Positions 4,446 through 60,906 of a DNA stretch of 64,000 nt are shown piece after piece (positions within the stretch are counted from its first letter, which is position 1; every line of letters starts with the position of its first letter). A program made the translations under genes and the position numbers. The notes beneath the pieces were generated by a model. It was not told where the DNA came from. It did not search any database and saw nothing but the letters and a program-made list of their open reading frames with translations. Location: NCBI GenBank assembly GCA_041650915.1, contig JBAZKE010000006.1, positions 8,961 through 72,960 of the forward strand. Direction: 5' to 3'. Origin of the DNA: Patescibacteria group bacterium (GTDB taxonomy: Bacteria > Patescibacteriota > Patescibacteriia > UBA10025 > JAHIVO01).

Positions 4446-5561
4446 ATGTCTATTTATCGCAACAAGATCGTGAACCGGCAGGGCGAGGACGTTGCTCAGC
4501 AGCCCCGACTTGCTACTCGCAGTAACGGTACCGTGGAGCGCACCGCGGCTCCGCTCGTCAACGCCAAGGGCGAGTACAACGCCTTCGATCAGAAGGATCT
4601 CAAGAACATCCTCATGACCCTGGCGAACCAGGTCGAGTCCGGCGAGATGCAGCGCGTGACTGCCGTCGACGAGGATGCGGCTTCCCGCCTCGTGACTGCT
4701 GCTCTGACCGAGCGCAACGCTGACCTCCGCGGCGGTGCCTTCGAGCGCGTCGGCCAGGTCGTCACGGACATGATTTCTGAAACGATGGGCCGCCAGTCGT
4801 TCTCAGATAAGATCTTCGCCCGCATGGACGCCAAAGAGGGCGTGGGCTTTGTGCCGCCCGTGAAGGTCGATCAGATGGACGTTGTTGCTTGGCACTTGAC
4901 CGCCAACGGCCAGGTTGCCGAGTCTCTCGTCAATCCCAAGTTCATCTACCCCGAGGGTTATTGGCTCCAGACTCTAGTGTACGTTGAAGAGCAGGATCTG
5001 TATTTCGCAGGTTCCAGCTTCCTCGAGCAGAAGCACCAGCGTGGTCTCGAGGCCATGCTCGTCCGCCAGGACAACGTGGCCAAGTTCCTCCTCGACGCCG
5101 CTGCCCCCGTGGCCAACGACGTCGTGACGTTCGGTACCTTCACCCCGACCGTCGCGGGTATTCTCCGTGATCAGGTGTGGCGTTGGAGTCTGACCCCCAC
5201 CACGATGCTCCTCGCTGTCGACCTCCAGCGGGACATTCTGTCTGATGACGACTGGCACAACGTTTATTCGCCAATTCAGAAGCACGTCCTCTTTGAAGAG
5301 GGGAAATTCGGCGAGATCTACGGGATGGAAGTGTTCACCGACGGTTTCCGTTACCCGACCCTGCGCGTCCTAGACCCAGGCGAAGTGTACTTCCTGTCGG
5401 CCCCCACGACCCTCGGCGTGCACATTCCTCTCATTCCTCTGTACAGCGAGCCCGTAAATCGGCACTTCGAAGGCATCCCCAAGAAGGGCTGGTTCGTCGC
5501 TTCCTACCAGGCTACCGTCGTGGCCAACAGCAAGGGCGTGTCCAAGGGCATCAAGGTCTAA
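4446..5561 (+). CDS. Putative major capsid-like structural protein (371 aa)
   Basis: RBS AAAGGA. Size and position next to abundant structural paralogs. Product assignment is tentative, with no diagnostic motif. Confidence 0.55.
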   Translation: MSIYRNKIVNRQGEDVAQQPRLATRSNGTVERTAAPLVNAKGEYNAFDQKDLKNILMTLANQVESGEMQRVTAVDEDAASRLVTAALTERNADLRGGAFERVGQVVTDMISETMGRQSFSDKIFARMDAKEGVGFVPPVKVDQMDVVAWHLTANGQVAESLVNPKFIYPEGYWLQTLVYVEEQDLYFAGSSFLEQKHQRGLEAMLVRQDNVAKFLLDAAAPVANDVVTFGTFTPTVAGILRDQVWRWSLTPTTMLLAVDLQRDILSDDDWHNVYSPIQKHVLFEEGKFGEIYGMEVFTDGFRYPTLRVLDPGEVYFLSAPTTLGVHIPLIPLYSEPVNRHFEGIPKKGWFVASYQATVVANSKGVSKGIKV

Positions 5562-12856: not shown

Positions 12857-14059
12857 ATGAAAATTACACCGGAAATCATGGCGGAGTGCAAGCATTACCC
12901 AGATGGTACTATAGGTGTACGAAATCGTAGCGGCAGAATGATAAAGTATGAATGCTGCGCGTCCTGTGCTGGGTGCGGCGAACCATTTTTATCTGAACAT
13001 TTCTACAAAAACGGACAGCGCGTTTTTAACACGTATTGCTCTGTTTCTTGTAGAAGTAAAAATATGGTTCTTTCCGACGAAACACACCACAAAATGGTGG
13101 TGTCGCATCTCGGTAAACCTGTTTCACCAGAAACGCGTAGGAAGTTAAGCGCAGCGTCTCGTGGTAGACCAATGCCCCTGCACGTGTCGGCTGTATTGCA
13201 CTCACCAGAGGCCAAACTAAAAGCCAGAGCAGGGCGAGACGCCCACGTGGCACTGCATGGTGGAAATTTAAAACCAGCACAGCATGCTGCTAAACACAAC
13301 CACTACCGACACTATATAAATAAAGCGGCAAACCGCGGTTTGATTTTTGAACTGACTAAAGATGAATTCTTAGACATAACATCTAAGCCTTGTCATTACT
13401 GCGGTGTAGCATCCAGCATCACAGTTAAAAATCATGCTTGCTGCACCACAGATGGTTTTTATGTCTGCAATGGCGTAGATCGCGTGGATTCAAGCAAAGG
13501 ATATACGCTGGATAACGTGGTTCCGTGCTGCACCCAGTGTAACATAGCAAAGTTAAATAAAAATATCGCTGAGTTTTTAATTTGGGTACTGAAAACGGAT
13601 TTGTTTTTACGTAATAAACCCACTAGTTTAACTTATTTCGGAGACATCATTGAGGCACAGCAGAGCGTTATGCGCGTTGTATTTGGTGAGCATAAGCGTA
13701 GGCGTAAGCACGGCAGTAAAGATTATATAGTCAGCACGCTGAGCATAATTGATTTTGCACGCCTAATAAGAACGCAATGCTTCTACTGCGGTGGAGGGTT
13801 ATCTAACGCGCGTGCACGCACTTACGGGCGTAACAGAAAACGTCCGGCTGATGGTGTAGTGCTGGAATACAATGGTTTGGACAGAATAGACCCCGATGGT
13901 GGCTATACCCTGGAAAATGTGGTTCCGTGTTGTGCAACGTGCAATAGAGCTAAATTAGATTACTCACAGGACGAATTCTATACCTGGGTAACACGCGTAG
14001 CCAACCACATTAGAAATACGCCAGAACTGTTTGATTTGGTCTCGTCCCATCTTTGTTAG
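12857..14059 (+). CDS. HNH homing endonuclease (tandem HNH_3-type motifs)
   Basis: Two copies of NGxDRxDxxxGYTLxNVVPCCxxCNxAKL. N-terminal Cys-rich segment. Markedly AT-rich compared with neighbours. Confidence 0.75.
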   Translation: MKITPEIMAECKHYPDGTIGVRNRSGRMIKYECCASCAGCGEPFLSEHFYKNGQRVFNTYCSVSCRSKNMVLSDETHHKMVVSHLGKPVSPETRRKLSAASRGRPMPLHVSAVLHSPEAKLKARAGRDAHVALHGGNLKPAQHAAKHNHYRHYINKAANRGLIFELTKDEFLDITSKPCHYCGVASSITVKNHACCTTDGFYVCNGVDRVDSSKGYTLDNVVPCCTQCNIAKLNKNIAEFLIWVLKTDLFLRNKPTSLTYFGDIIEAQQSVMRVVFGEHKRRRKHGSKDYIVSTLSIIDFARLIRTQCFYCGGGLSNARARTYGRNRKRPADGVVLEYNGLDRIDPDGGYTLENVVPCCATCNRAKLDYSQDEFYTWVTRVANHIRNTPELFDLVSSHLC

Positions 14060-21179: not shown

Positions 21180-21533
21180 ATGGCCTATGCAACGTCCATC
21201 ACGATGTATCGAAATCGCAACCACACCGTCAGGGTAACGGTGGACCTCACGACCTTGGTGTCGATCCAGAACGCCACCGTGCGGTTTTCAGTTCGGCGCG
21301 GGGCCGTGACGGAAAACGGCGCCATCGTGATCAACAAAACAAATCTTCCCAGTATTGTGCTGGGTGCTGAAGTCATCTTGCCCGACACCGTCGAGTTCTA
21401 CCTGCAGCCCAGCGATACCTCAGGGTTGACAGCAGGAAATTACACGGCTGACGCGACCATCACGACGACGCTCGGTACCTTCCAACTCTTGGCGCCCTTG
21501 GCCCTGACGCTCATGGAGCCCGTGACACCGTAA
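21180..21533 (+). CDS. Hypothetical protein (117 aa)
   Basis: ORF in the structural gene run. Confidence 0.45.
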   Translation: MAYATSITMYRNRNHTVRVTVDLTTLVSIQNATVRFSVRRGAVTENGAIVINKTNLPSIVLGAEVILPDTVEFYLQPSDTSGLTAGNYTADATITTTLGTFQLLAPLALTLMEPVTP

Positions 21534-22639
21534 TGGCCGATTTCAACGATCTCGACCTGACGCAATACACCCCGGCAGAATCGGATGACATCCGCGAAGC
21601 CGATTTGGATTTGGTACTGCTCATGATGTCGAGTGACGCCGACGCGCCTGGGCAGATTAATATGGACAACATCACGACCGGAACCGATCTGGGGTCTGAC
21701 ATGGCTGTTTGGGCTACTCTGCGTAATCGAGTTTTGACCGATGCCGTCAGCACGACCAACCGCGCCTGTCAATTCCTGGCGTTTGTTGATGAGCATTTGG
21801 TCACGACGGCCGGCTGGACTCGTGTCGGTAGTGGTGGCGGAACTGCCAGTGGTCTCTACGGATGGGGCGCCGCAAAGGTCCTGCCGGCCTTTGCGGCTTC
21901 CCCTGGGTTAATGAAAACCCTGGCCTGGGGCCTCTATCAGAACGCCAGTGGTGCTCAGGTACTGTTCAGCCTGTCAACCGCCTACTGTAAGATCCAACTG
22001 GCCCCTCAAGGCGGGTTTGCCGCCGGGGCGTCCGATGAAGACACACTGCCAACGGCACCGGCCGAAAATCTCGTCCTGACTACCACCACGACTTACACGA
22101 ATGTGGGCGCTAATCTCAATCAAGTGTTCACGTTTGCCTATACTGCGGACCATAATTCATTTATATTTTTCGGCAAATTTGGCGCCGTCGACAACCTTGC
22201 GTATGCGATCGTGAAACTTGAGGATTACAAAACCGGCGATACCCGACCTTACTGGGCCTATTGCAATGCCAGGTCTGACGCCGATAATTGGTCATTACTG
22301 TTGATGTCATCCACGCCCATAACCGACAGCATGATCGGCTGGCACCCCACGACCGGCAAACAGGTCTACTCGATCTTGAACCCCGTGACCAACTCAGCCG
22401 ATGTGTTTCTGAACATGCCGGTTGACCCAGTCAGCGGATACCACCAAAAACTAGAATGTTTGCTGGGCTGTACGACCGCGGGCTCAATTCACTTGCGTGG
22501 CAAGATACCCGGAGTCTACCGAGTGTCCAGCGCCTTGGCAACCGGCGACAAGCTCAGCCTGTCCGGCGGCGTGTATGAGCAGGTGGTGATCGGTGATTAT
22601 GCGGTTCCGTGGATGAGTTCCGACGCGATGACGTGGTAA
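21533..22639 (+). CDS. Hypothetical structural protein (368 aa)
   Basis: ATG overlaps the upstream stop (TAATG). Confidence 0.55.
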   Translation: MADFNDLDLTQYTPAESDDIREADLDLVLLMMSSDADAPGQINMDNITTGTDLGSDMAVWATLRNRVLTDAVSTTNRACQFLAFVDEHLVTTAGWTRVGSGGGTASGLYGWGAAKVLPAFAASPGLMKTLAWGLYQNASGAQVLFSLSTAYCKIQLAPQGGFAAGASDEDTLPTAPAENLVLTTTTTYTNVGANLNQVFTFAYTADHNSFIFFGKFGAVDNLAYAIVKLEDYKTGDTRPYWAYCNARSDADNWSLLLMSSTPITDSMIGWHPTTGKQVYSILNPVTNSADVFLNMPVDPVSGYHQKLECLLGCTTAGSIHLRGKIPGVYRVSSALATGDKLSLSGGVYEQVVIGDYAVPWMSSDAMTW

Positions 22640-22643
22640 TATC

Positions 22644-23387
22644 ATGACCAGATATTTAGTCTACCGAAATGCTGTTTATCGCATCGCTTCCATGCCGTTG
22701 CAAGTTTTGCAGTTGGGCCCTGGCCAGAAATTCGATCCTGATTTCAAGACTTCCTGCACGCCTCCTTGGCAGGTTAACCCCTTCAATTACAAGCCGCTGT
22801 GCAGCAGCGGTAATCAACAACCGCTCTGGACCTCATCATACGACTACGAGGCAAAAAGTACTGAATGGCTAAGGTACTGCGCTCGCGGCTATGAAGACGA
22901 CATTGGGGAACAGGCCGTCATTTTTGAAGTGTCACCGTCTGCACGTGTGATGCATATTTTGAACGAAGACGACTTTGAAACAGCTTTAGGTCTATATCCT
23001 GGTGAGCCTTCCAACGACATGAAACGCATGGGAATGGGCCGACCTTTAGATTGGAACGCTGTCGCGCAGGAGTACGATGGATTTCATGTAGGGCGCGAAG
23101 CAATTTCTACTTCAGAACTTCGGGAGTGGAGCGTCGAATCGACCGTATGGTTTAACCCGAAAGTCTTGACGGTAAAGCAAATAGTTGACATCCAACATTA
23201 CTGTGACGCCGCTGGACACGGTCGTAGTTTGTCCCCACAAGAGCGTAAAGACATCAAGCAACAAAAAGAACAAACAGAAGAGTCTTTCGGGGAAAAACTT
23301 GACCAGTGGCTCGAGCACAGGACTGGGCCACAACCACAGCCGCCCCATGACCAGTACAGGTTCCGTTACGAAATACCCCGGCCATAG
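22644..23387 (+). CDS. Hypothetical protein (247 aa) with N-terminal hairpin tag MTRYLVYRNAVYRI
   Basis: Tag variant at residues 3-13. Confidence 0.55.
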   Translation: MTRYLVYRNAVYRIASMPLQVLQLGPGQKFDPDFKTSCTPPWQVNPFNYKPLCSSGNQQPLWTSSYDYEAKSTEWLRYCARGYEDDIGEQAVIFEVSPSARVMHILNEDDFETALGLYPGEPSNDMKRMGMGRPLDWNAVAQEYDGFHVGREAISTSELREWSVESTVWFNPKVLTVKQIVDIQHYCDAAGHGRSLSPQERKDIKQQKEQTEESFGEKLDQWLEHRTGPQPQPPHDQYRFRYEIPRP

Positions 23388-23402
23388 CAGCAAGGAAAAT
23401 TC

Positions 23403-23457
23403 AATGCCGACAAAACTGCAATACCGTGGTCATGTTTACCGGCAAGCCAACCCCTGA
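23403..23457 (+). CDS. Tag-only mini-ORF (MPTKLQYRGHVYRQANP), possibly a frameshifted N-terminus of the 23426..24460 gene
   Basis: AAGGAAAA RBS 7 nt upstream. Encodes only the hairpin tag, then stops. Overlaps the next ORF in the -1 frame. Confidence 0.3.
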
Positions 23458-24460
23458 ATGGTGGGGACAGGACCAAGATCATCACTACACGCAGCCCGCA
23501 GATCCCGAGACTGAAATCCCGGTGGCAGATCTGCTGCGGGAATTCGACGAGATGATCGAGATCGCGTGCCGAGACGGCACCTGGAATGTTGATCCATATC
23601 TCTTCGGCATGGCCAATGGCATGATTTTCATGCGGTCAATAGTCAGCGGCGAAGAACCTCAGTATTTGGAGGCGCCGGCCGAGTGGTCGGGCGAGTCCAG
23701 TGGGGTAGAGGCAGAATCGGATAAGCGTTCACTTGCGCGGGGTGAAACTACACGTTACGTTACCCGTGACTATCTTCGCCAATATGTAGAGTCTACCGGT
23801 GTCGATTTGGACGACATAAAGCGTCATTATGGCCTCGGACAACATTCGGCCAGTGCCCAGTACCGACGGGGTTTTGTCGACGGGCAGGATTTCGGGCATG
23901 CTATTTTAGACGACGCGGCCCAACTTGAGCATGGTACCACAGCACTACAACGTGATGTCGACCGATTAGGCTGGGACGGGGCCGTTGAGCACCAGCAAGA
24001 TTTAGGCGACGCGGCCCAGCAACGTCTGGACCCCAATGCCATCAGCAAAACCATGTGGCAAATGGGCGTGCGGGATGCCAAACTGCTCGGCCCAGGGCTT
24101 ATAACAGTCGAAGAGGCGAAAGCTAGGGCGGCCAGAAGTGTCGCCAGCACTAAACAAGAAATATTGGCAACCCTGACCTCCAAGTTTAATTTCGGCGAAC
24201 CCAACGAATTTGACACACAAATCAGCACCGAAGCGGCCTACGCGCAGGAGCAGGACGCCATGGTGGCGTGGACAGCAGTCCGGCAGTACATCGATTCCGT
24301 GCTGCGGCAGCTCCTTCCCGTCACCACGACCGAAACAGATTTCGGCATGGCCCAAACCATCCTTGGTCTCATTGAGGTGGCGTCACATGTCGGTCGTGTG
24401 CGTTGCCGATGCTCAGATCCTTGGCGACTGCATGTCGGCATCACGACGCTCGCCAAATAG
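23426..24460 (+). CDS. Hypothetical protein (344 aa)
   Basis: Long ORF. Its own ATG lacks an RBS, whereas the out-of-frame 23403 ATG has a good one. Confidence 0.5.
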   Translation: MVMFTGKPTPEWWGQDQDHHYTQPADPETEIPVADLLREFDEMIEIACRDGTWNVDPYLFGMANGMIFMRSIVSGEEPQYLEAPAEWSGESSGVEAESDKRSLARGETTRYVTRDYLRQYVESTGVDLDDIKRHYGLGQHSASAQYRRGFVDGQDFGHAILDDAAQLEHGTTALQRDVDRLGWDGAVEHQQDLGDAAQQRLDPNAISKTMWQMGVRDAKLLGPGLITVEEAKARAARSVASTKQEILATLTSKFNFGEPNEFDTQISTEAAYAQEQDAMVAWTAVRQYIDSVLRQLLPVTTTETDFGMAQTILGLIEVASHVGRVRCRCSDPWRLHVGITTLAK

Positions 24461-27482: not shown

Positions 27483-28241
27483 ATGTTGCTTTCGGGCGTG
27501 TACAAGATTCAAAATACAGTTAATGGCAAACAGTACATAGGTAGTTCTGTGAATATACGAGAACGCTGGCAAGACCACGAAAGAAACCTGCGTGCCGGTA
27601 CGCACGCTAACGCCAGGCTGCAACACGCCTGGAATAAATATGGGGCAGACGCGTTTATATTTTCTATCATAGAGCTAGTCTCTCCAACCAAAGATGCTTT
27701 AATTGCACGCGAGCAAGCGTGGATAGATTTGCACAATACTGCTCATCGGGATGTTGGGTACAATATAAGTCCGACGGCAGGATCTTCTCTGGGCACCAAA
27801 TTTTCTGCGGAAACTTGTGCGCGCATGAGTAAAGCACAAAAGGGCAAAGTGCTCACGGAAGAGCACAAAAGAAAGATAGGCGCAGCGGCAAAAGGCAGAA
27901 AAGCGTCGGACGAAACTAAAATAAAGATTGGAAACGGTAGTCGAGGCAGAAAGCACACAGAGGAATGTAAAGCTAGAATCGGAGCTGCGTCCGCTGCTTG
28001 GACACGTGGGCCTGTATCGGACGAGACGCGCGCCAAACAAAGTGTAACGCGAAGAGCGAAACGATTGGGACATGGCGCCTCTAATGGCAGGGCAAAATTA
28101 ACAGAAGAACAAGTGATTGAGATCCGCAGACTTTACGCCACACGCGAATACACCAACGTTCAAATAGCGCAGCTTTTTGGCGTGTGCAAATCCACCATAG
28201 GCAGGATAGTACAGGGTAAACACTGGATTTTTGTAGCTTAA
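27483..28241 (+). CDS. GIY-YIG homing endonuclease with NUMOD3-type repeats
   Basis: GVYKIQNTVNGKQYIGSS...R...H. Repeated HKxKIG/ETKxKIG modules. AT-rich island. Confidence 0.85.
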   Translation: MLLSGVYKIQNTVNGKQYIGSSVNIRERWQDHERNLRAGTHANARLQHAWNKYGADAFIFSIIELVSPTKDALIAREQAWIDLHNTAHRDVGYNISPTAGSSLGTKFSAETCARMSKAQKGKVLTEEHKRKIGAAAKGRKASDETKIKIGNGSRGRKHTEECKARIGAASAAWTRGPVSDETRAKQSVTRRAKRLGHGASNGRAKLTEEQVIEIRRLYATREYTNVQIAQLFGVCKSTIGRIVQGKHWIFVA

Positions 28242-43041: not shown

Positions 43042-43269
43042 ATGTCACAAAAACTTCGTAAGTGCATTCAACTCGGTAAAGTGGTGGTTCGTAATCGGAC
43101 TTCCGGCGAAGTCATTGTGTATTACCCACTGCCAGACGGCTCGCCAGCGACTGCCACCATTTCCCCCGGTGGAAGTATGGAACTAGCGCCCAAGTTCACC
43201 ACGCCGGCCATGTTGATGAAATCCAACCTGGAAGAGCTGGCCCGCAAAGGCCACGTGACTTTCATATAA
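43042..43269 (+). CDS. Hypothetical small protein (75 aa)
   Basis: RBS AAAGGA. Confidence 0.45.
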   Translation: MSQKLRKCIQLGKVVVRNRTSGEVIVYYPLPDGSPATATISPGGSMELAPKFTTPAMLMKSNLEELARKGHVTFI

Positions 43270-44150
43270 TGCAATGTCACATCCATGACAATGTTCCCGC
43301 CAGTGCAGATTTATTAGTCATTCACCACATTAAACCGCAAGCATTCGGCGGGCAAGACATACCTGAAAACCGTGTGATGCTGTGCGCATCATGTCACGAC
43401 GTTCTGCATAAAGCAGAACATAAATTATCCAAAGGAAAGACCGGAGAAGCACTAGATATTATCGATCGCTTTTTACCGAATCAGACTGCCAGGCAACAGC
43501 GTCTCCGTGCACTGATGAATTCTGTGGCCTCGGCGCGTAAGGCTTGGAAGACCAAGTCGAATGTTGTTCCGGAGGCTCAGGGTAAAGTTGACGACACTGT
43601 AATCGTACAGCTAAATCTTCCGATTTGGTTACACCATAGGCTAAAAACAACCGCGCAAGATCAACAGGTTGGGTTGTACAAGCTCTGCCTCCGGGTGCTG
43701 GAGCAATATGTCGTCAAGCAAGACATGCCAACCTTGGACCCGGCTATACCCGCGGCTCCGGCACCAGAAGTAAAGTTCATCGCACCGAAGCCAAATAAAA
43801 TAATCCAGATCTGGAATGTTTTGGATAAAGCCGACGCCATGGAACTCGAAACACGAATGTTGTCCGCGGGATCGAAAGAGCGCTATTGCGAGATCATGCA
43901 AAAGGCACTCAAGCTATCCCCGTTGCCCCGCCACTTAGAAGATAAAGATTTTAGTCTGGACGACGCGTTCGGGCTGCTGACATGTGTGTTCGACAAACTT
44001 AAAAAAGCGCAAATGCGCGGAGTCGACGAACTATACTGCGGTGTACTTTTGCTGGCGCTCAAGGGTTACCCCGTTACTTTACAAATCCAGGCAGAAGCTC
44101 AGCACTATAAAACAACAAAATGGTTATTGCATTTATTTCCTGCTGCGTAA
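43269..44150 (+). CDS. HNH nuclease domain protein (293 aa)
   Basis: N-terminal HHIKPQAFGGQDIPENRVMLCASCHDVLH (HNH motif). Confidence 0.6.
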   Translation: MQCHIHDNVPASADLLVIHHIKPQAFGGQDIPENRVMLCASCHDVLHKAEHKLSKGKTGEALDIIDRFLPNQTARQQRLRALMNSVASARKAWKTKSNVVPEAQGKVDDTVIVQLNLPIWLHHRLKTTAQDQQVGLYKLCLRVLEQYVVKQDMPTLDPAIPAAPAPEVKFIAPKPNKIIQIWNVLDKADAMELETRMLSAGSKERYCEIMQKALKLSPLPRHLEDKDFSLDDAFGLLTCVFDKLKKAQMRGVDELYCGVLLLALKGYPVTLQIQAEAQHYKTTKWLLHLFPAA

Positions 44151-49235: not shown

Positions 49236-49973
49236 ATGACGCCTAAATATATTCGTGTAGCTGGTAAACTATATCGTGCCTGCCCCTGTACTGAAGTTCC
49301 TGCTGCGGAGCATGCAGATGTAGTGCGCGAAGAACTCGAGATGCAGGGCTTTTCCGCGGTGCCATGCCAGGAACCCAAGAAAGTGTGTGTAGAGACTCCG
49401 CCAGCCCAGCCACAGATTTCGGCTCCACAACGCATTGAAACTACACAACGCTCAGCGCCGCAGTTCATTCGAGTACAAGGGCAAGTTTATAAAAAGGCGG
49501 CGGCAAATCTTCCTGCTGTTGCTGCTGGAACGCTCAAAGCGCTGAATCGCGTCAGAATGCAAATTACTGCAATTCTGGGCGAAGCCGATCGCGGGGACGA
49601 AGACCGCGCGTCGGACACCGTCTGTATTTCCAATGTTCCAGGTGAGTTTCAGGTGCTGTCGGCCGATGCGCTGGGTGAGCGCGCACGTGAGGCGCTGGAA
49701 CTACTGTACAATTCTATCGCGCTGTGGGAGCGCAGCGCTACCGTCGCGTTGGCGGAGAATGAGATCATGCAGCACGCGTACGTGCTGCTCAATGACGTGC
49801 ACGGCGCAGTGTCTGAGGCCGTTGAATCCGGCATTAATGCGCAGCCTGGATTTTTCTGTGTAGAGCGCGAAAAGTTCTTCGGTCTGGTATCGGATATCTC
49901 TGCGTGCATGCAAGCCTTCACGAAGCTAGAGCGGATGTTGACCCAGAAATACAGCGTAGCCTCCGTCTCTTAG
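49236..49973 (+). CDS. Hypothetical protein (245 aa) with two hairpin tags (N-terminal KYIRVAGKLYR; internal QFIRVQGQVYKK at 49461-49496)
   Basis: RBS AAGGAT. Two tag copies. Confidence 0.6.
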   Translation: MTPKYIRVAGKLYRACPCTEVPAAEHADVVREELEMQGFSAVPCQEPKKVCVETPPAQPQISAPQRIETTQRSAPQFIRVQGQVYKKAAANLPAVAAGTLKALNRVRMQITAILGEADRGDEDRASDTVCISNVPGEFQVLSADALGERAREALELLYNSIALWERSATVALAENEIMQHAYVLLNDVHGAVSEAVESGINAQPGFFCVEREKFFGLVSDISACMQAFTKLERMLTQKYSVASVS

Positions 49974-50008: not shown

Positions 50009-50593
50009 ATGTCACAGCGCCTCCAATTCCGTGGGCACAACTACCGCCTGTACACTCCGAAAAGCCAACGCCGTGAATTTCGCATGGCGGTTGCGGGTCT
50101 ATGGCGCGACGTCACGACAGTAATTCGGTATCTCGCAGAAAAAGGAATTGATCCAGTAGTTGTCGGCGGCCTCGCCGTGCAACACCACGGCGTAGAGCGT
50201 CTGACCGAAGATATCGATATCTTGATCTCCAGAGCTGCATACACGAAGCTCGTTGAGGAAGGCAAGATTAAGTTCGGGCAGCTGAAAATCATCCCCGGCA
50301 CGGAAATCGATGTGCTGACCGAGGGAAAGGACAACAACCCCGATCCTGAATTCATTCGAGCCGGAGATTCTAATTTCCCGACGTTTGCCGGTTTGATCTA
50401 CCTGAAGCTGAAAGCGAACCGACTTAAAGACCGAGGCGATGTCGCGGAGCTACTTAAAGCCCACGAGTTCAATATCGAGGAACAGCAGGAAATCCTAACG
50501 TTCCTGCCAGAAGAGCTAAAAATTAGATTTTTAGCCATTTGGGACGAAGCCGGGCAAGAGCACGACAAACGCAAGCAAATGGTGGAAGAATAA
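50009..50593 (+). CDS. Nucleotidyltransferase-fold (AbiEii-like) protein (194 aa) with N-terminal tag MSQRLQFRGHNYRLY
   Basis: Leaderless ATG. VVGGLAVQHHGVERLTEDIDILI matches the GG...G..R.T.DiD minimal NTase signature. Confidence 0.6.
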   Translation: MSQRLQFRGHNYRLYTPKSQRREFRMAVAGLWRDVTTVIRYLAEKGIDPVVVGGLAVQHHGVERLTEDIDILISRAAYTKLVEEGKIKFGQLKIIPGTEIDVLTEGKDNNPDPEFIRAGDSNFPTFAGLIYLKLKANRLKDRGDVAELLKAHEFNIEEQQEILTFLPEELKIRFLAIWDEAGQEHDKRKQMVEE

Positions 50594-51252
50594 TGCAACG
50601 TGTGTTTTCAACGCTGAACGATCTCATCGCGCAAGGCGTTATTACCGATTATGCTCTTGGTGGCTCCGTTGCGTTCATGTTTTACTGCCAGCCGTTCCTG
50701 ACCAACGACACCGATTTCTTTGTACAAATGCCGGGAAGCGGACTGCTAGTCTCGCTCTCGCCAATCTACGCTTACGCGGCAGAACATAATTTTCCTCTGG
50801 ACCATGAGCACATCGTTGTCGATGACGAGCCGGTGCAAATCATTCCAGCGCCCTCACCACTCTACGACGAAGCAATCGCTACAGCGCAGCAGCGGACAAT
50901 CGAAGGACAGAATGTAAAGGTCATGCTGCCGGAATATCTCGTCTGCACGGCACTGAATGCCGGCCGAATGAAAGATTTCGCAAAAATCGAAAAACTGCTC
51001 GAGGAAGCAGAAGTCGATCTGAGTAAACTAAAGGAACTCATTACCCGGTTTCAGCTATCTGCGCAGTGGAAGCGCTACCTTGTCGCCATTGGAGTTACTG
51101 ATCCAGCTTTTCTGCATTTGGCGGAAACAAAAGCAACCTGGCGCCGTGCACAAGCCGATAAACGGATGGAAGACAAACTACAAGAAATAAAAAAGCTGCG
51201 CACCAGAGTCAGCGCAATCCGCTATAGAAACGCACTGTACAGACCTGTTTAA
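50593..51252 (+). CDS. Second nucleotidyltransferase-fold-like protein (219 aa) with C-terminal tag IRYRNALYRPV
   Basis: ATG overlaps the upstream stop, with GGAAGA RBS. ALGGSVAFMFYCQPFLTNDTDFFV. The track's overlapping start at 50539 was rejected. Confidence 0.55.
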   Translation: MQRVFSTLNDLIAQGVITDYALGGSVAFMFYCQPFLTNDTDFFVQMPGSGLLVSLSPIYAYAAEHNFPLDHEHIVVDDEPVQIIPAPSPLYDEAIATAQQRTIEGQNVKVMLPEYLVCTALNAGRMKDFAKIEKLLEEAEVDLSKLKELITRFQLSAQWKRYLVAIGVTDPAFLHLAETKATWRRAQADKRMEDKLQEIKKLRTRVSAIRYRNALYRPV

Positions 51253-52980: not shown

Positions 52981-53649
52981 ATGTACTCAGCACAAGCTTC
53001 TCGCTTCATAGGTTTTGATACATCGACGTACTGCTCACCCCAGTATGCCAGAATTCTCTGGGATGCCGGGTACAGGCTGGCGATTCGGTATATTCGGCGG
53101 GATAAACACGTCAACGCCGTGCCAGACCTCAATGGCCTGGTTTCGCTGTCGCTTCAGGAGCGTGACGAACTCCTGAGCATTGGGTTCAAGATTACATGCG
53201 TGCAGTTCGCCAAACTCTCGCTCGTGCCATCAACCGCCGAAGGCACTGCGGCAGCCGAAGCTGGAGTTTACAACGCCAAAGCTTTGGGATTCAAGGCCGG
53301 CGACACTATTTGGTACGATTTTGAGTGGTCTACCTCGCAAAATGCTTCTGCAGTAATGAGTTACATCGACGCCATTGGTAAATACACCGTGGCGAATGGC
53401 TTCAAAATGGGGTCCTACGTCGGTCCCAATTGTAGTCTTTCTGGTGATCAGTGGTATGCGCGGCCCTACTGCACGGCGTACTGGAAATCCGGCGCGATTG
53501 TGCCTTGGGTTACGCAACGTGCGTTCCAGCTGATCCAGGGAGTTCCCATCACTGTCGGCAAGACGAGCACACGGGCCGGCATCAACATTGATCAGGATAT
53601 CGTGTGTTATGACAACAAAAATGAAATTTTCTCTTGTCTCGCGGCCTAA
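52981..53649 (+). CDS. Putative glycoside hydrolase / lysin-like protein (GH25- or Rv2525c-like)
   Basis: Very strong RBS TAGGAGGT. GFDTSTY...AIRYIRR pattern reminiscent of GH25/DUF1906-type lysin domains. Tentative. Confidence 0.5.
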   Translation: MYSAQASRFIGFDTSTYCSPQYARILWDAGYRLAIRYIRRDKHVNAVPDLNGLVSLSLQERDELLSIGFKITCVQFAKLSLVPSTAEGTAAAEAGVYNAKALGFKAGDTIWYDFEWSTSQNASAVMSYIDAIGKYTVANGFKMGSYVGPNCSLSGDQWYARPYCTAYWKSGAIVPWVTQRAFQLIQGVPITVGKTSTRAGINIDQDIVCYDNKNEIFSCLAA

Positions 53650-58893: not shown

Positions 58894-59148
58894 CCAAAGT
58901 TCAATTTGAGTCAACCACCCCTCCTACATGGAGAGACGCGAAAAGGTCTCTGGTTGACTAGGGAACATCGAAAGGTGTAGCAGTTGGTCGAGAGAAATAC
59001 ATACACACCCGTGGACGCTCCTCAAATCTACGGCTCTGTGGATCTGTCGTTAAAAAGCTCAAGGGGTAGAGCTGGTGCGCAGATCTTAAAAACCTCTTCC
59101 AACAATCCCGATGAGGCTCTCACTTCCCTTTCGAGGGAAGGGCAGGAC
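58894..59148 (+). ncRNA. Candidate IscB-associated omega RNA scaffold and left-end structured region
   Basis: About 250-nt non-coding stretch immediately 5' of the IscB PLMP start. Dense nested hairpins (58909-58959 AGTCAACCA...TGGTTGACT with an inner GAGAC/GTCTC stem; GCTC...GAGC about 59080; CTTCCC-TTTCGA-GGGAAG 59120-59137). The reading frame is formally open through it. Confidence 0.3.
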
Positions 59149-60906
59149 TTGAGAGTACCTGCCGTTTATGTTCTTAATCAACGCGGCGAGCCATTAATGC
59201 CCACAACGCCAAGGAAAGCACGAATGCTTCTCCGGGAAGGAAAGGCCAAGGTAAAGACTAGAACTCCGTTTGTAATTCAATTGCTTGTTCCAACCGGAGA
59301 AACCAAACGGCCCATCGTTTTGGGAGTAGACGCTGGATACCTCCACGTTGGCCTGTCGGCCGTAACGGAAAATAAAGAAGTATACGCCGCGGAAATCACG
59401 CTTAGGTCTGATATTGTAGCCTTAATTTCGACTCGTAAAATGTATCGACAAACACGAAGAAGTAGAAAAACCTGGTACAGACAGCCGAGATGGTTGAATC
59501 GAGTAAAAAGCAAACCCAAAGGCTGGCTAGCTCCGTCAATTCAGCACAAGCTCAATAGCCATGTAAAACTGGTCGAGCGCGTTAAACGAATTCTTCCCAT
59601 TACCTCAGTAATAGTGGAAATAGCTGCTTTTGACATTCAGAAAATCAAAAATCCAGATATACAGGGAGTAGAGTACCAAGAAGGTGTGCAAAAAGGTTTT
59701 ACAAACGTGCGAGAATATGTGCTGTACAGAGATGGACATAAATGCCAAGCGTGCAAAGGAAAATCCAAAGACAAAATTTTGAAAGTAGTGTTGAACGCCC
59801 ACCACATAGAGTCTAGAAAAACAGGCGGAAATCGACCTGATAATCTCGTTACACTCTGTGCTGAGTGTCATAAGCTTTACCATAACGGTACCGTAAACAT
59901 TAAAACTAAACCCAGCAAAAGTTTCAAAGCCGAAGCATTCATGACGATGGTGTGGCGACGATTGGTTGAACTATTAGGTGCCGCAATCCGATATGGCTAC
60001 GAAACCAAACAAGCTAGAGCAGACGCTGGACTTAACAAAAGTCATGTTAATGACGCTTTTGTCGTCGCGGGCGGATGCTACCAGAACAGAACAGTTCCAT
60101 TTTTAGTAAAACAAGTTAGGAAACAGAACCGAAAACTTTACAATGGACCACACTCCGGTCGGCGCAGCACCGCTGCTCGATTTGTTCGTGGGTTCCAACG
60201 ATACGATAAAGTCCTGTACAAAGGAGTGGAATGTTTTGTGTTTGGAAGAAGAACCAACGGTTATTTCGACGTCCGAGATCTATACGGTGCTAGAATACAT
60301 GACGGCGCAAAAGCCAAGGACTGTGTTTTGCTGGAAACAGCAAGCACTTTATTAACCTGTACCCTAAGAGGTGGCACTCCCCTGCCTAAAGGCAGAGGTC
60401 TCCATGCCGAAGCCCAAATGAAAATCAGAACTGGTTTTGTCAGCAATTCGAGTAGTTCTAGCTTTGTCGTGCAAATCCGGCAGAGTCCGTGGGAAAAATC
60501 CGAGCCCAAATTGTTGCTTTCGCCGGAGCAACTCGCATGGCTAGAGTCTCAAGGATTTCGGTACTGTGCGCACACGTATCCCTCGCGAGTTGAGGAAACT
60601 GGGATTCTGGAAATGTACCCTGGCGCCGAAACGCCTGAAGCAGCAGAAAATATGTGGCTGTCGGTGATTTGTAACCAAGACGAAGTCATCGACGGTTTGG
60701 TCCGGCAGGGCATTCCATTTTGTGCGTCATGCCACTACGGACACGAGACTGTGGTTTGGCGCGCTGGCGATAAGCGCGTTTATGCATTGCCAAATTTAGG
60801 GCACGAATACGAAACATACCAAGAGGAGAAACTTTTCAAAGCTAAAGTCAAAGTAGCATCACAAACCGTAGCAAGCATCAAGAAAAACGGGTGTAATCTC
60901 GTTTAG
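59149..60906 (+). CDS. iscB: IscB-like RNA-guided nuclease (PLMP, RuvC-I, Arg-rich bridge, RuvC-II, HNH, RuvC-III, TID), fused in-frame to a C-terminal MKIRTGFVSNSSSSSF-family module
   Basis: VYVLNQRGEPLMPTTPRKARMLLREGKAKVKTRTPFVIQLL. LGVDAGYLHVGLS (catalytic D at about 59329). RRSRKTWYRQPRW. VIVEIAAFDIQ. HNH: CQAC...HHIESRK...N...LCAECHKLYH. SHVNDAFVVAGG. TID: FQRYDKVLYKGVECFVFGRRTNGYFDVRDLYG. TTG start at 59149 with GAGGGAAGGG RBS. The track ORF is open from 58984. Confidence 0.8.
   Translation: MRVPAVYVLNQRGEPLMPTTPRKARMLLREGKAKVKTRTPFVIQLLVPTGETKRPIVLGVDAGYLHVGLSAVTENKEVYAAEITLRSDIVALISTRKMYRQTRRSRKTWYRQPRWLNRVKSKPKGWLAPSIQHKLNSHVKLVERVKRILPITSVIVEIAAFDIQKIKNPDIQGVEYQEGVQKGFTNVREYVLYRDGHKCQACKGKSKDKILKVVLNAHHIESRKTGGNRPDNLVTLCAECHKLYHNGTVNIKTKPSKSFKAEAFMTMVWRRLVELLGAAIRYGYETKQARADAGLNKSHVNDAFVVAGGCYQNRTVPFLVKQVRKQNRKLYNGPHSGRRSTAARFVRGFQRYDKVLYKGVECFVFGRRTNGYFDVRDLYGARIHDGAKAKDCVLLETASTLLTCTLRGGTPLPKGRGLHAEAQMKIRTGFVSNSSSSSFVVQIRQSPWEKSEPKLLLSPEQLAWLESQGFRYCAHTYPSRVEETGILEMYPGAETPEAAENMWLSVICNQDEVIDGLVRQGIPFCASCHYGHETVVWRAGDKRVYALPNLGHEYETYQEEKLFKAKVKVASQTVASIKKNGCNLV
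60418..60906 (+). other. C-terminal extension of the IscB ORF, equal to paralog A of the MKIRTGFVSNSSSSSF family (163 aa), with internal ATG
   Basis: Begins MKIRTGFVSNSSSSSF, like the two genes downstream. In the IscB frame with no intervening stop. Could instead be a separate or coupled gene. Confidence 0.5.

Follow-up and report, generated by a model that had tools for sequence, protein, structure and literature searches.

Does a 17-codon reading frame that encodes only a tag, lying just ahead of and partly over a much longer reading frame, belong to the same gene as its neighbor, and if it does, what separates the two? This question arises in a stretch of 64,000 nt (the window) from a public contig of 78,120 nt, which is recorded under a Patescibacteria MAG and whose content is that of a phage genome.

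Phage setting and start signals of the split gene

The window is a fragment of a tailed-phage genome with nearly all of its genes on the + strand. These genes encode a major head protein (4446–5561), virion proteins, a Laminin_G_3 tail-fibre-like protein, a ligase, IscB, and homing endonucleases. The homing-endonuclease-type genes are found at 12857–14059 (HNH / endonuclease VII-like), 27483–28241 (GIY-YIG), and 43269–44150 (HNH), and a glycoside-hydrolase-like protein is encoded at 52981–53649. The split gene lies where the structural module ends, among accessory genes. We found no DNA similarity to deposited phages, and the major capsid protein identified no relatives in IMG/VR. The nearest related phage that we found was reached via the neighboring phosphoesterase (56% identical, three samples), and the flanking genes are syntenic. 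Because this phage lacks the gene at the syntenic position (genes B and C are both absent there), the gene appears to be accessory and dispensable, and its loss tolerated.

Several features elsewhere in the window are of separate interest. A HEARO RNA (RF02033, 100 bits) at 58910–59123 (+) adjoins an ORF at 58984–60906 (+) that has RRXRR and HNH domains; the pair has the appearance of an IscB/omega-RNA (OMEGA) element carried by the phage. An RRXRR+HNH protein is also encoded on contig L163, discussed below. Examination by eye revealed three tandem paralog pairs (24753–25226/25258–25737, 2581–3384/3611–4405, and 60915–61283/61294–61611), the first of which is just downstream of the split gene; in this pair, intergenic sequence on the upstream side seems to have been duplicated as well. 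Finally, within the gene at 21533–22639 (368 aa), the Logan assembly of SRR8542065 reads GGGGG where the window reads GGGG (21691–21695), which splits the gene into 55-aa and 312-aa parts. Over 21 kb the Logan assembly and the window differ nowhere else, and two records contain the split product.

The features of the split gene are as follows, with residues numbered along the conceptual fused product:

23392–23399, + strand: Shine-Dalgarno (SD)-like sequence AAGGAAAA, serving ATG 23404, with its GGA core 7 nt ahead of the start codon
23404–23457, + strand: mini-ORF in frame 0, 17 codons, encoding MPTKLQYRGHVYRQANP and then TGA at 23455–23457
23413–23442, + strand: β-hairpin tag, residues 4–13 (KLQY-RG-HVYR), modeled by AlphaFold2 as strands at 4–7 and 10–13
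23426–23434, + strand: GTG 23426 and ATG 23432, the sole start codons in the body frame, inside the tag codons for G-H-V and without an SD
23440–23454, + strand: codons for R13-Q-A15-N16-P17, the first conserved body-domain residues, in the mini-ORF frame
23452–23457, + strand: CCC_TGA, a +1 shifty stop at the frame junction, within a four-C run (23451–23454)
23456–24460, + strand: gene body in the +1 frame, E18 to K351 plus TAG, 334 codons, fully open
23522–23689, + strand: conserved two-helix core domain, approximately fused residues 40–95 (DLLxEFDxxxxIxCxDGxWNxDPYxxGMANGM...EPxYLxAP)

The mini-ORF was first noticed in a first-pass annotation of the sequence, which placed it at 23403–23460 with its ATG at 23403. 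The ORF exists, but it begins with ATG 23404 and ends at 23457. Its start signals are as good as that annotation judged them to be: the upstream gene stops at 23387, 16 nt ahead of ATG 23404, and the predicted anti-SD duplex has an energy of −5.4 kcal/mol, compared with a median of −4.3 across 55 genes of the window. The long ORF runs from GTG 23426 or ATG 23432 to 24460, in a frame that is open from 23351. The mini-ORF had been described as lying in the −1 frame with respect to this ORF, which is the same as saying that the long ORF is in the +1 frame relative to the mini-ORF. Because the anti-SD energies at GTG 23426 and ATG 23432 are +0.4 and +0.6, respectively (weaker than ∼93–95% of genes), the body has no RBS of its own, again in agreement with the earlier description. 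NCBI nonetheless annotates a 342-aa hypothetical protein from ATG 23432 (P0001). Such an untagged body would begin MFTGKPTPEWW..., and the public call, made at an internal ATG without an RBS, omits the tag as well as a portion of a conserved motif. Joined conceptually, the two parts give a product of 351 aa (MPTKLQYRGHVYRQANP-EWWGQDQ...). Its junction peptide starts QANPEWWGQDQDHH, and the predicted tryptic peptide across the junction is QANPEWWGQDQDHHYTQPADPETEIPVADLLR.

Homology across the junction

The body contains a widely distributed N-terminal domain and an orphan C-terminal region. An exhaustive HMMER search with the 342-aa body returned 731 proteins at E ≤ 1e-3, 57 of them at E ≤ 1e-10 (best homolog, 5e-28). 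All 731 matches fall on roughly the first 95–140 body residues; residues ∼100–351 are an orphan in the full search. The domain has the signature DGxWNxDPYxHGMANGM and occurs mostly as a stand-alone phage protein of 70–100 aa (phrog_23796). This PHROG includes 42 of 58 aligned relatives, and the window protein does not reach E ≤ 0.01 against it. A Pfam search for the two-helix domain matched no family. In an AlphaFold2 model of the fused N-terminus (mean pLDDT 87.5), helices span residues 40–54 and 64–81, and fold searches of PDB and BFVD with this model gave no meaningful match. A k-mer protein search and a viral-contig scan for close orthologs of the body returned only the contig itself. The GMANG two-helix domain is widespread in phage contigs, as the 731 representative proteins attest. 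We fetched domain loci from IMG/VR (72), from metagenomes (the 80 best of 127), and from bacterial genome/MAG contigs (five).

A subset of the relatives is extended N-terminally with the motif R-x-A-N-P-x-W-W-G, and about half of this subset has the hairpin directly ahead of the motif, in every case in a single frame. The in-frame succession of hairpin, RxANPxWWG, and domain is seen in P0009, P0021, P0011, P0067, P0008, L076, and L077. Tagged homologs start MPRILHYRGHRYRQANPSWWGLDETGHH... (P0009), MFAYQGYLYRIANPTWW... (P0021), MTFRYRGHKYRVANPSWW... (L076), and MFRYHGHQYRQANPSWW... (L077); the corresponding segments of P0011 (...LRFKNLKYRLANPFWW...) and P0067 (...ALFNGAIYRQANPMWW...) are not at the very start of the protein. 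One example of a single-frame homolog begins MPRILHYRGHRYRQANPSWWG....

Examination of the aligned sequences narrows the break to a few bases. Across 16 aligned sequences, A15 and P17 never vary, and R13, N16, W19, and W20 show at least 90% conservation. Of these residues, the window has R13, A15, N16, and P17 in the frame of the mini-ORF and both tryptophans, W19 and W20, in the +1 frame; at the position of the RQANP of the homologs, the body frame reads KPTP. The DNA of one homolog (L003) reads GCC AAC CCT TCC TGG TGG in frame, and that of the window reads GCC AAC CCC TGA A TGG TGG, which is one base longer between AACCC and TGGTGG. Because the window encodes RQANP in the frame of the mini-ORF but EWWG one base on, in the +1 frame, the change of frame occurs within AAC CCC T GAA (23449–23458). 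It is confined to 23451–23455; the mini-ORF is therefore a severed 5′ end and not an independent unit. Scored with a profile from which the window sequence was left out, the fused protein reaches 136.4 bits and the body alone 124.8 bits (a difference of 11.6 bits), and the fused alignment crosses the junction through YRQANP.

The tag-plus-body gene joined by a frameshift, which the first-pass annotation had preferred, is thus strongly supported by homologs that have both parts in one frame, and we regard a single gene as very probable. Its predicted layout is a hairpin tag, the R-x-A-N-P-x-W-W-G motif, the conserved two-helix domain, and the orphan C-terminal region. By this comparison the mini-ORF is the predicted true 5′ end of the gene, and one extra nucleotide at AAC CCC T GAA is the apparent cause of the broken reading frame. 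It had also been proposed that high-quality reads confirming the sequence, together with orthologs naturally lacking a tag and having their own RBS, would count against a joined gene. Naturally untagged homologs do occur (MITRTANPNWWG and MRKQRTANPDWWG; P0007 and P0017), but these keep R-x-ANP in frame with the body. They start M-x-x-R-T-ANP-x-WW, whereas the window has the R, A, and N only in the mini-ORF frame and KPTP in the body frame.

The tag itself recurs throughout the phage. The sequence at 23404 (MPTKLQYRGHVYR) fits the pattern hydrophobic-x-[YFIV]-[RK]-[GN]-x-x-[YF]-[RK] directly after the start codon, and this pattern opens at least 11 window genes (e.g., MLYRGHLYR, MTRYLVYRNAVYR, MSVPKFIRVAGQLYR, and MSQRLQFRGHNYR):

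Tagged gene starts, + strand: 2124, 11429, 22644, 23404, 44184, 46183, 46801, 48523, 49236, 50009, 54326

The gene at 49236 encodes a second tag copy at residues 73–88, and the gene at 50593–51252 has a tag at its C-terminus. Mutual resemblance among the tagged window proteins is limited to the tag. A stricter motif, Y-[RK]-[GNDSAQ]-x-x-Y, occurs eight times in the six-frame translation of the window, and four of these occurrences are within 2–7 codons of a gene ATG. Judged by its sequence, the hairpin tag at the mini-ORF is not a chance match. Homologs of the upstream neighbor (22644) in other metagenomes keep a diverged in-frame tag (MKLCVKNGRARIARAK- and MRLRIRNGRARIARAK-) on bodies that are only ∼30% identical, and gene callers skip it. 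Moreover, four contigs that encode homologs of the tagged domain (L003, L163, L077, and L078) have several tagged genes as well. Across the window and the ∼160 fetched loci there are 13 strict-tag ORFs. The one at 23404 is the sole tag-only ORF among them; the others head ORFs of 45–1203 aa.

The occurrence of the hairpin in frame with the same domain in unrelated metagenomes anchors it as a real, translated, modular element. Its presence on at least 11 genes is more intriguing than the split gene, and our guess is that it acts as a common signal for binding or targeting. Gene callers often start after the tag, and the tag system of this phage group offers a concrete subject for study. The beginning of the DUF4278 (PF14105) consensus is similar to the tag; this family is the N-terminal M-x-L-x-Y-R-G-x-x-Y segment of the cyanobacterial GS-inactivating factor IF17 (PMC6212724). 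We rejected membership in this family: the natural N-termini gave no match, and an artificial tandem duplicate scored 20.2 bits against a cut-off of 25.3. An Rfam search found no glutamine riboswitch in the window.

The CCC_UGA junction and the origin of the break

The first-pass annotation reported no canonical X XXY YYZ slippery heptamer in the overlap. This observation is correct but irrelevant. A search for the −1 heptamer is the wrong test because it looks in the wrong direction; a +1 shift is needed, and CCC_TGA is present. In the sequence AAC CCC TGA A (23449–23458), the P-site CCC can re-pair as CCU in the +1 frame, and skipping one base at CCC_TGA makes GAA the next codon and yields ...RQANP-EWWGQ.... 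The zero-frame TGA in the A site is the rarest stop of this phage (TAA 34, TAG 21, and TGA 7 in 62 genes). CCC_UGA has been described as ‘especially +1 shift-prone’ and is used by Listeria phages and antizyme, while other phages use CCC_UAA (PMC3082878). Alone, CCC_UGA generally yields ≤∼2% shifting in E. coli (PMC3082878). In the E. coli pheL, a 15-codon ORF, shifting is 15%, and it reaches ∼60% with a nascent-peptide stimulator (PMC3082878).

These precedents suggest how the gene could be expressed. Initiation would take place at the well-placed ATG 23404, and most ribosomes would probably terminate at UGA 23455–23457 and release a 17-residue peptide. In a fraction, peptidyl-tRNA-Pro may slip from CCC to CCU while a slowly decoded UGA occupies the A site, and the slipped ribosomes would continue in the +1 frame to make the 351-aa tagged protein. 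We infer slippage in the host, and its level, from the published behavior of the hexamer. No prfB-type SD-like element was found 5′ of the CCC, and the 89 nt downstream fold no better than shuffled sequences (z = +1.1); the expected shift efficiency is therefore low. The window contains no tRNA genes (phage suppressor or frameshift tRNA), and Rfam identifies no known RNA element at the junction, the HEARO RNA being its sole match in the window.

The family offers no second example of the break. No frameshifted member was found in 72 viral and 10 metagenome loci read frame by frame, and the 15 proteins with the junction motif are all in frame. The loci fetched from bacterial genomes likewise contained none. 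A scan of viral contigs for an ANP-TGA-(+1)-xWW DNA pattern gave 25 chance matches, none with the domain; the in-frame control pattern likewise returned chance matches only in the viral-contig scan. Weighing this evidence, we give about even odds that the sequence is genuine and that +1 slippage at CCC_UGA yields at least some of the tagged protein. A selected, prfB-like slippage device is, overall, a possibility about which we are doubtful. Given real DNA, such a device and the simple leakiness of a recent C3-to-C4 insertion are about even. If the site is selected, we tentatively conjecture that it provides either a low output tied to the state of host RF2 or tRNA-Pro, or a free 17-residue hairpin peptide together with a little tagged protein.

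The three origins that were initially put forward for the break (an indel artefact, a recent mutation, or recoding) remain the right ones to consider. Under an assembly or sequencing indel, the real phage would have AAC CCT GAA TGG TGG and an uninterrupted 350-aa tagged gene, and the mini-ORF would be an artefact. The break does sit in a homopolymer run, and deleting one C restores the exact homolog motif. This is also the sole broken gene among ∼60 in the window, as expected of a rare assembly error, and because two assemblies of the phage differ by a one-base indel in a G run 1.8 kb upstream (21691–21695 of the window), one-base homopolymer discrepancies evidently occur in these data. However, short-read data are not especially error-prone at a run of four Cs, and the 67.9-kb Logan contig from SRR8542065 is identical at the junction to the 78-kb NCBI/JGI record, both reading CCCC. 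Furthermore, no in-frame variant of this protein was found among 5.8 billion protein clusters, and by our rough estimate well under 1% of random homopolymer indels would hit a CCC-stop site. We therefore consider an artefact unlikely.

A young pseudogene is a second explanation to which we assign little likelihood. Here, a real and recent one-base insertion would have broken a gene in a dispensable accessory region, with slippage negligible and the body not usefully made. A single C inserted into an ancestral AAC CCT GAA could create CCC_TGA automatically. The in-frame state of all homologs, the lack of frameshift stimulators, and the accessory status implied by the nearest related phage fit this explanation, and a young lesion would leave the downstream ORF intact. 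Against it, phage genomes usually purge dead DNA fast, and the RBS and ATG are intact, as are all 334 downstream codons, which are free of a second lesion. In addition, the systems tested show intrinsic leakiness at CCC_UGA (PMC3082878), making zero product unlikely if the DNA is real. The remaining proposal, a stand-alone tag or leader peptide plus an untagged body translated from ATG 23432 or GTG 23426 by coupling or reinitiation, agrees with the NCBI call and with the existence of natural untagged homologs (P0007 and P0017), but it is very improbable given the placement of the conserved R, A, and N, the lack of an SD at the body starts, the solitary status of this tag-only ORF, and the geometry of reinitiation, in which a terminating ribosome meets a wrong-frame AUG (23458) 1 nt past the stop while AUG 23432 lies ∼25 nt behind.

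The Patescibacteria label of the record raised the possibility that UGA is read as a sense codon, which we also rejected: a second stop in frame 0 follows 18 codons on, homology continues in the +1 frame, and the genes tile well under code 11. Transcriptional slippage can be dismissed, as a four-C run is too short.

The reading chosen for the break determines its significance. If the slip is deliberate, phage +1 recoding extends beyond C-terminal capsid and tail extensions to an early shift in the style of prfB by which expression is throttled or made conditional, and the locus supplies a compact 60-nt test cassette. To our knowledge, no phage +1 recoding site has so far been placed in an N-terminal gene leader rather than in a C-terminal structural extension, and a selected site here would be the first. 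If the break is instead a mutation or an artefact, the locus is an annotation lesson.

Comparison with known recoding systems

In layout, +1 slippage at this junction would resemble that of prfB, which encodes RF2. Both would have a +1 shift at an early in-frame UGA shifty stop (codon 26 in prfB and codon 18 here), and both would pair a short, non-functional zero-frame peptide with a full-length protein that needs the shift. Likewise, efficiency at both would depend on RF2-mediated termination at UGA. There are also differences. The prfB site is CUU_UGA_C and has bacteria-wide conservation and, 3 nt ahead of it, an SD-like stimulator; the window site has neither the stimulator nor the conservation, and the phage protein suggests no obvious autoregulatory logic.

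Phage structural genes offer the same proposed mechanism in a different arrangement. +1 shifting at CCC_UGA or CCC_UAA occurs in the Listeria phage PSA group, Lactobacillus phage Q54, and Bacillus phage SPP1 (PMC3082878). The window site resembles these cases in its phage setting and in the proposed CCC-to-CCU re-pairing of tRNA-Pro opposite a slow stop, and the CCC_UGA hexamer is shared. In the structural genes, however, shifting adds a C-terminal extension and gives two useful products, whereas the zero-frame product here is only 17 residues long. The pheL leader is similar in size and ending, with an ORF of ∼15 codons that closes on Pro-UGA. The product of shifting in pheL lacks conservation and is regarded as incidental; in the window, by contrast, the shifted frame encodes a conserved protein.

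The locus also resembles an ordinary indel pseudogene or assembly error, in that it has one extra homopolymer base relative to in-frame homologs and nothing similar in its relatives. It differs from an ordinary indel-broken gene in that the break falls on a known recoding site and in that the RBS, the start codon, and all 334 downstream codons are intact.
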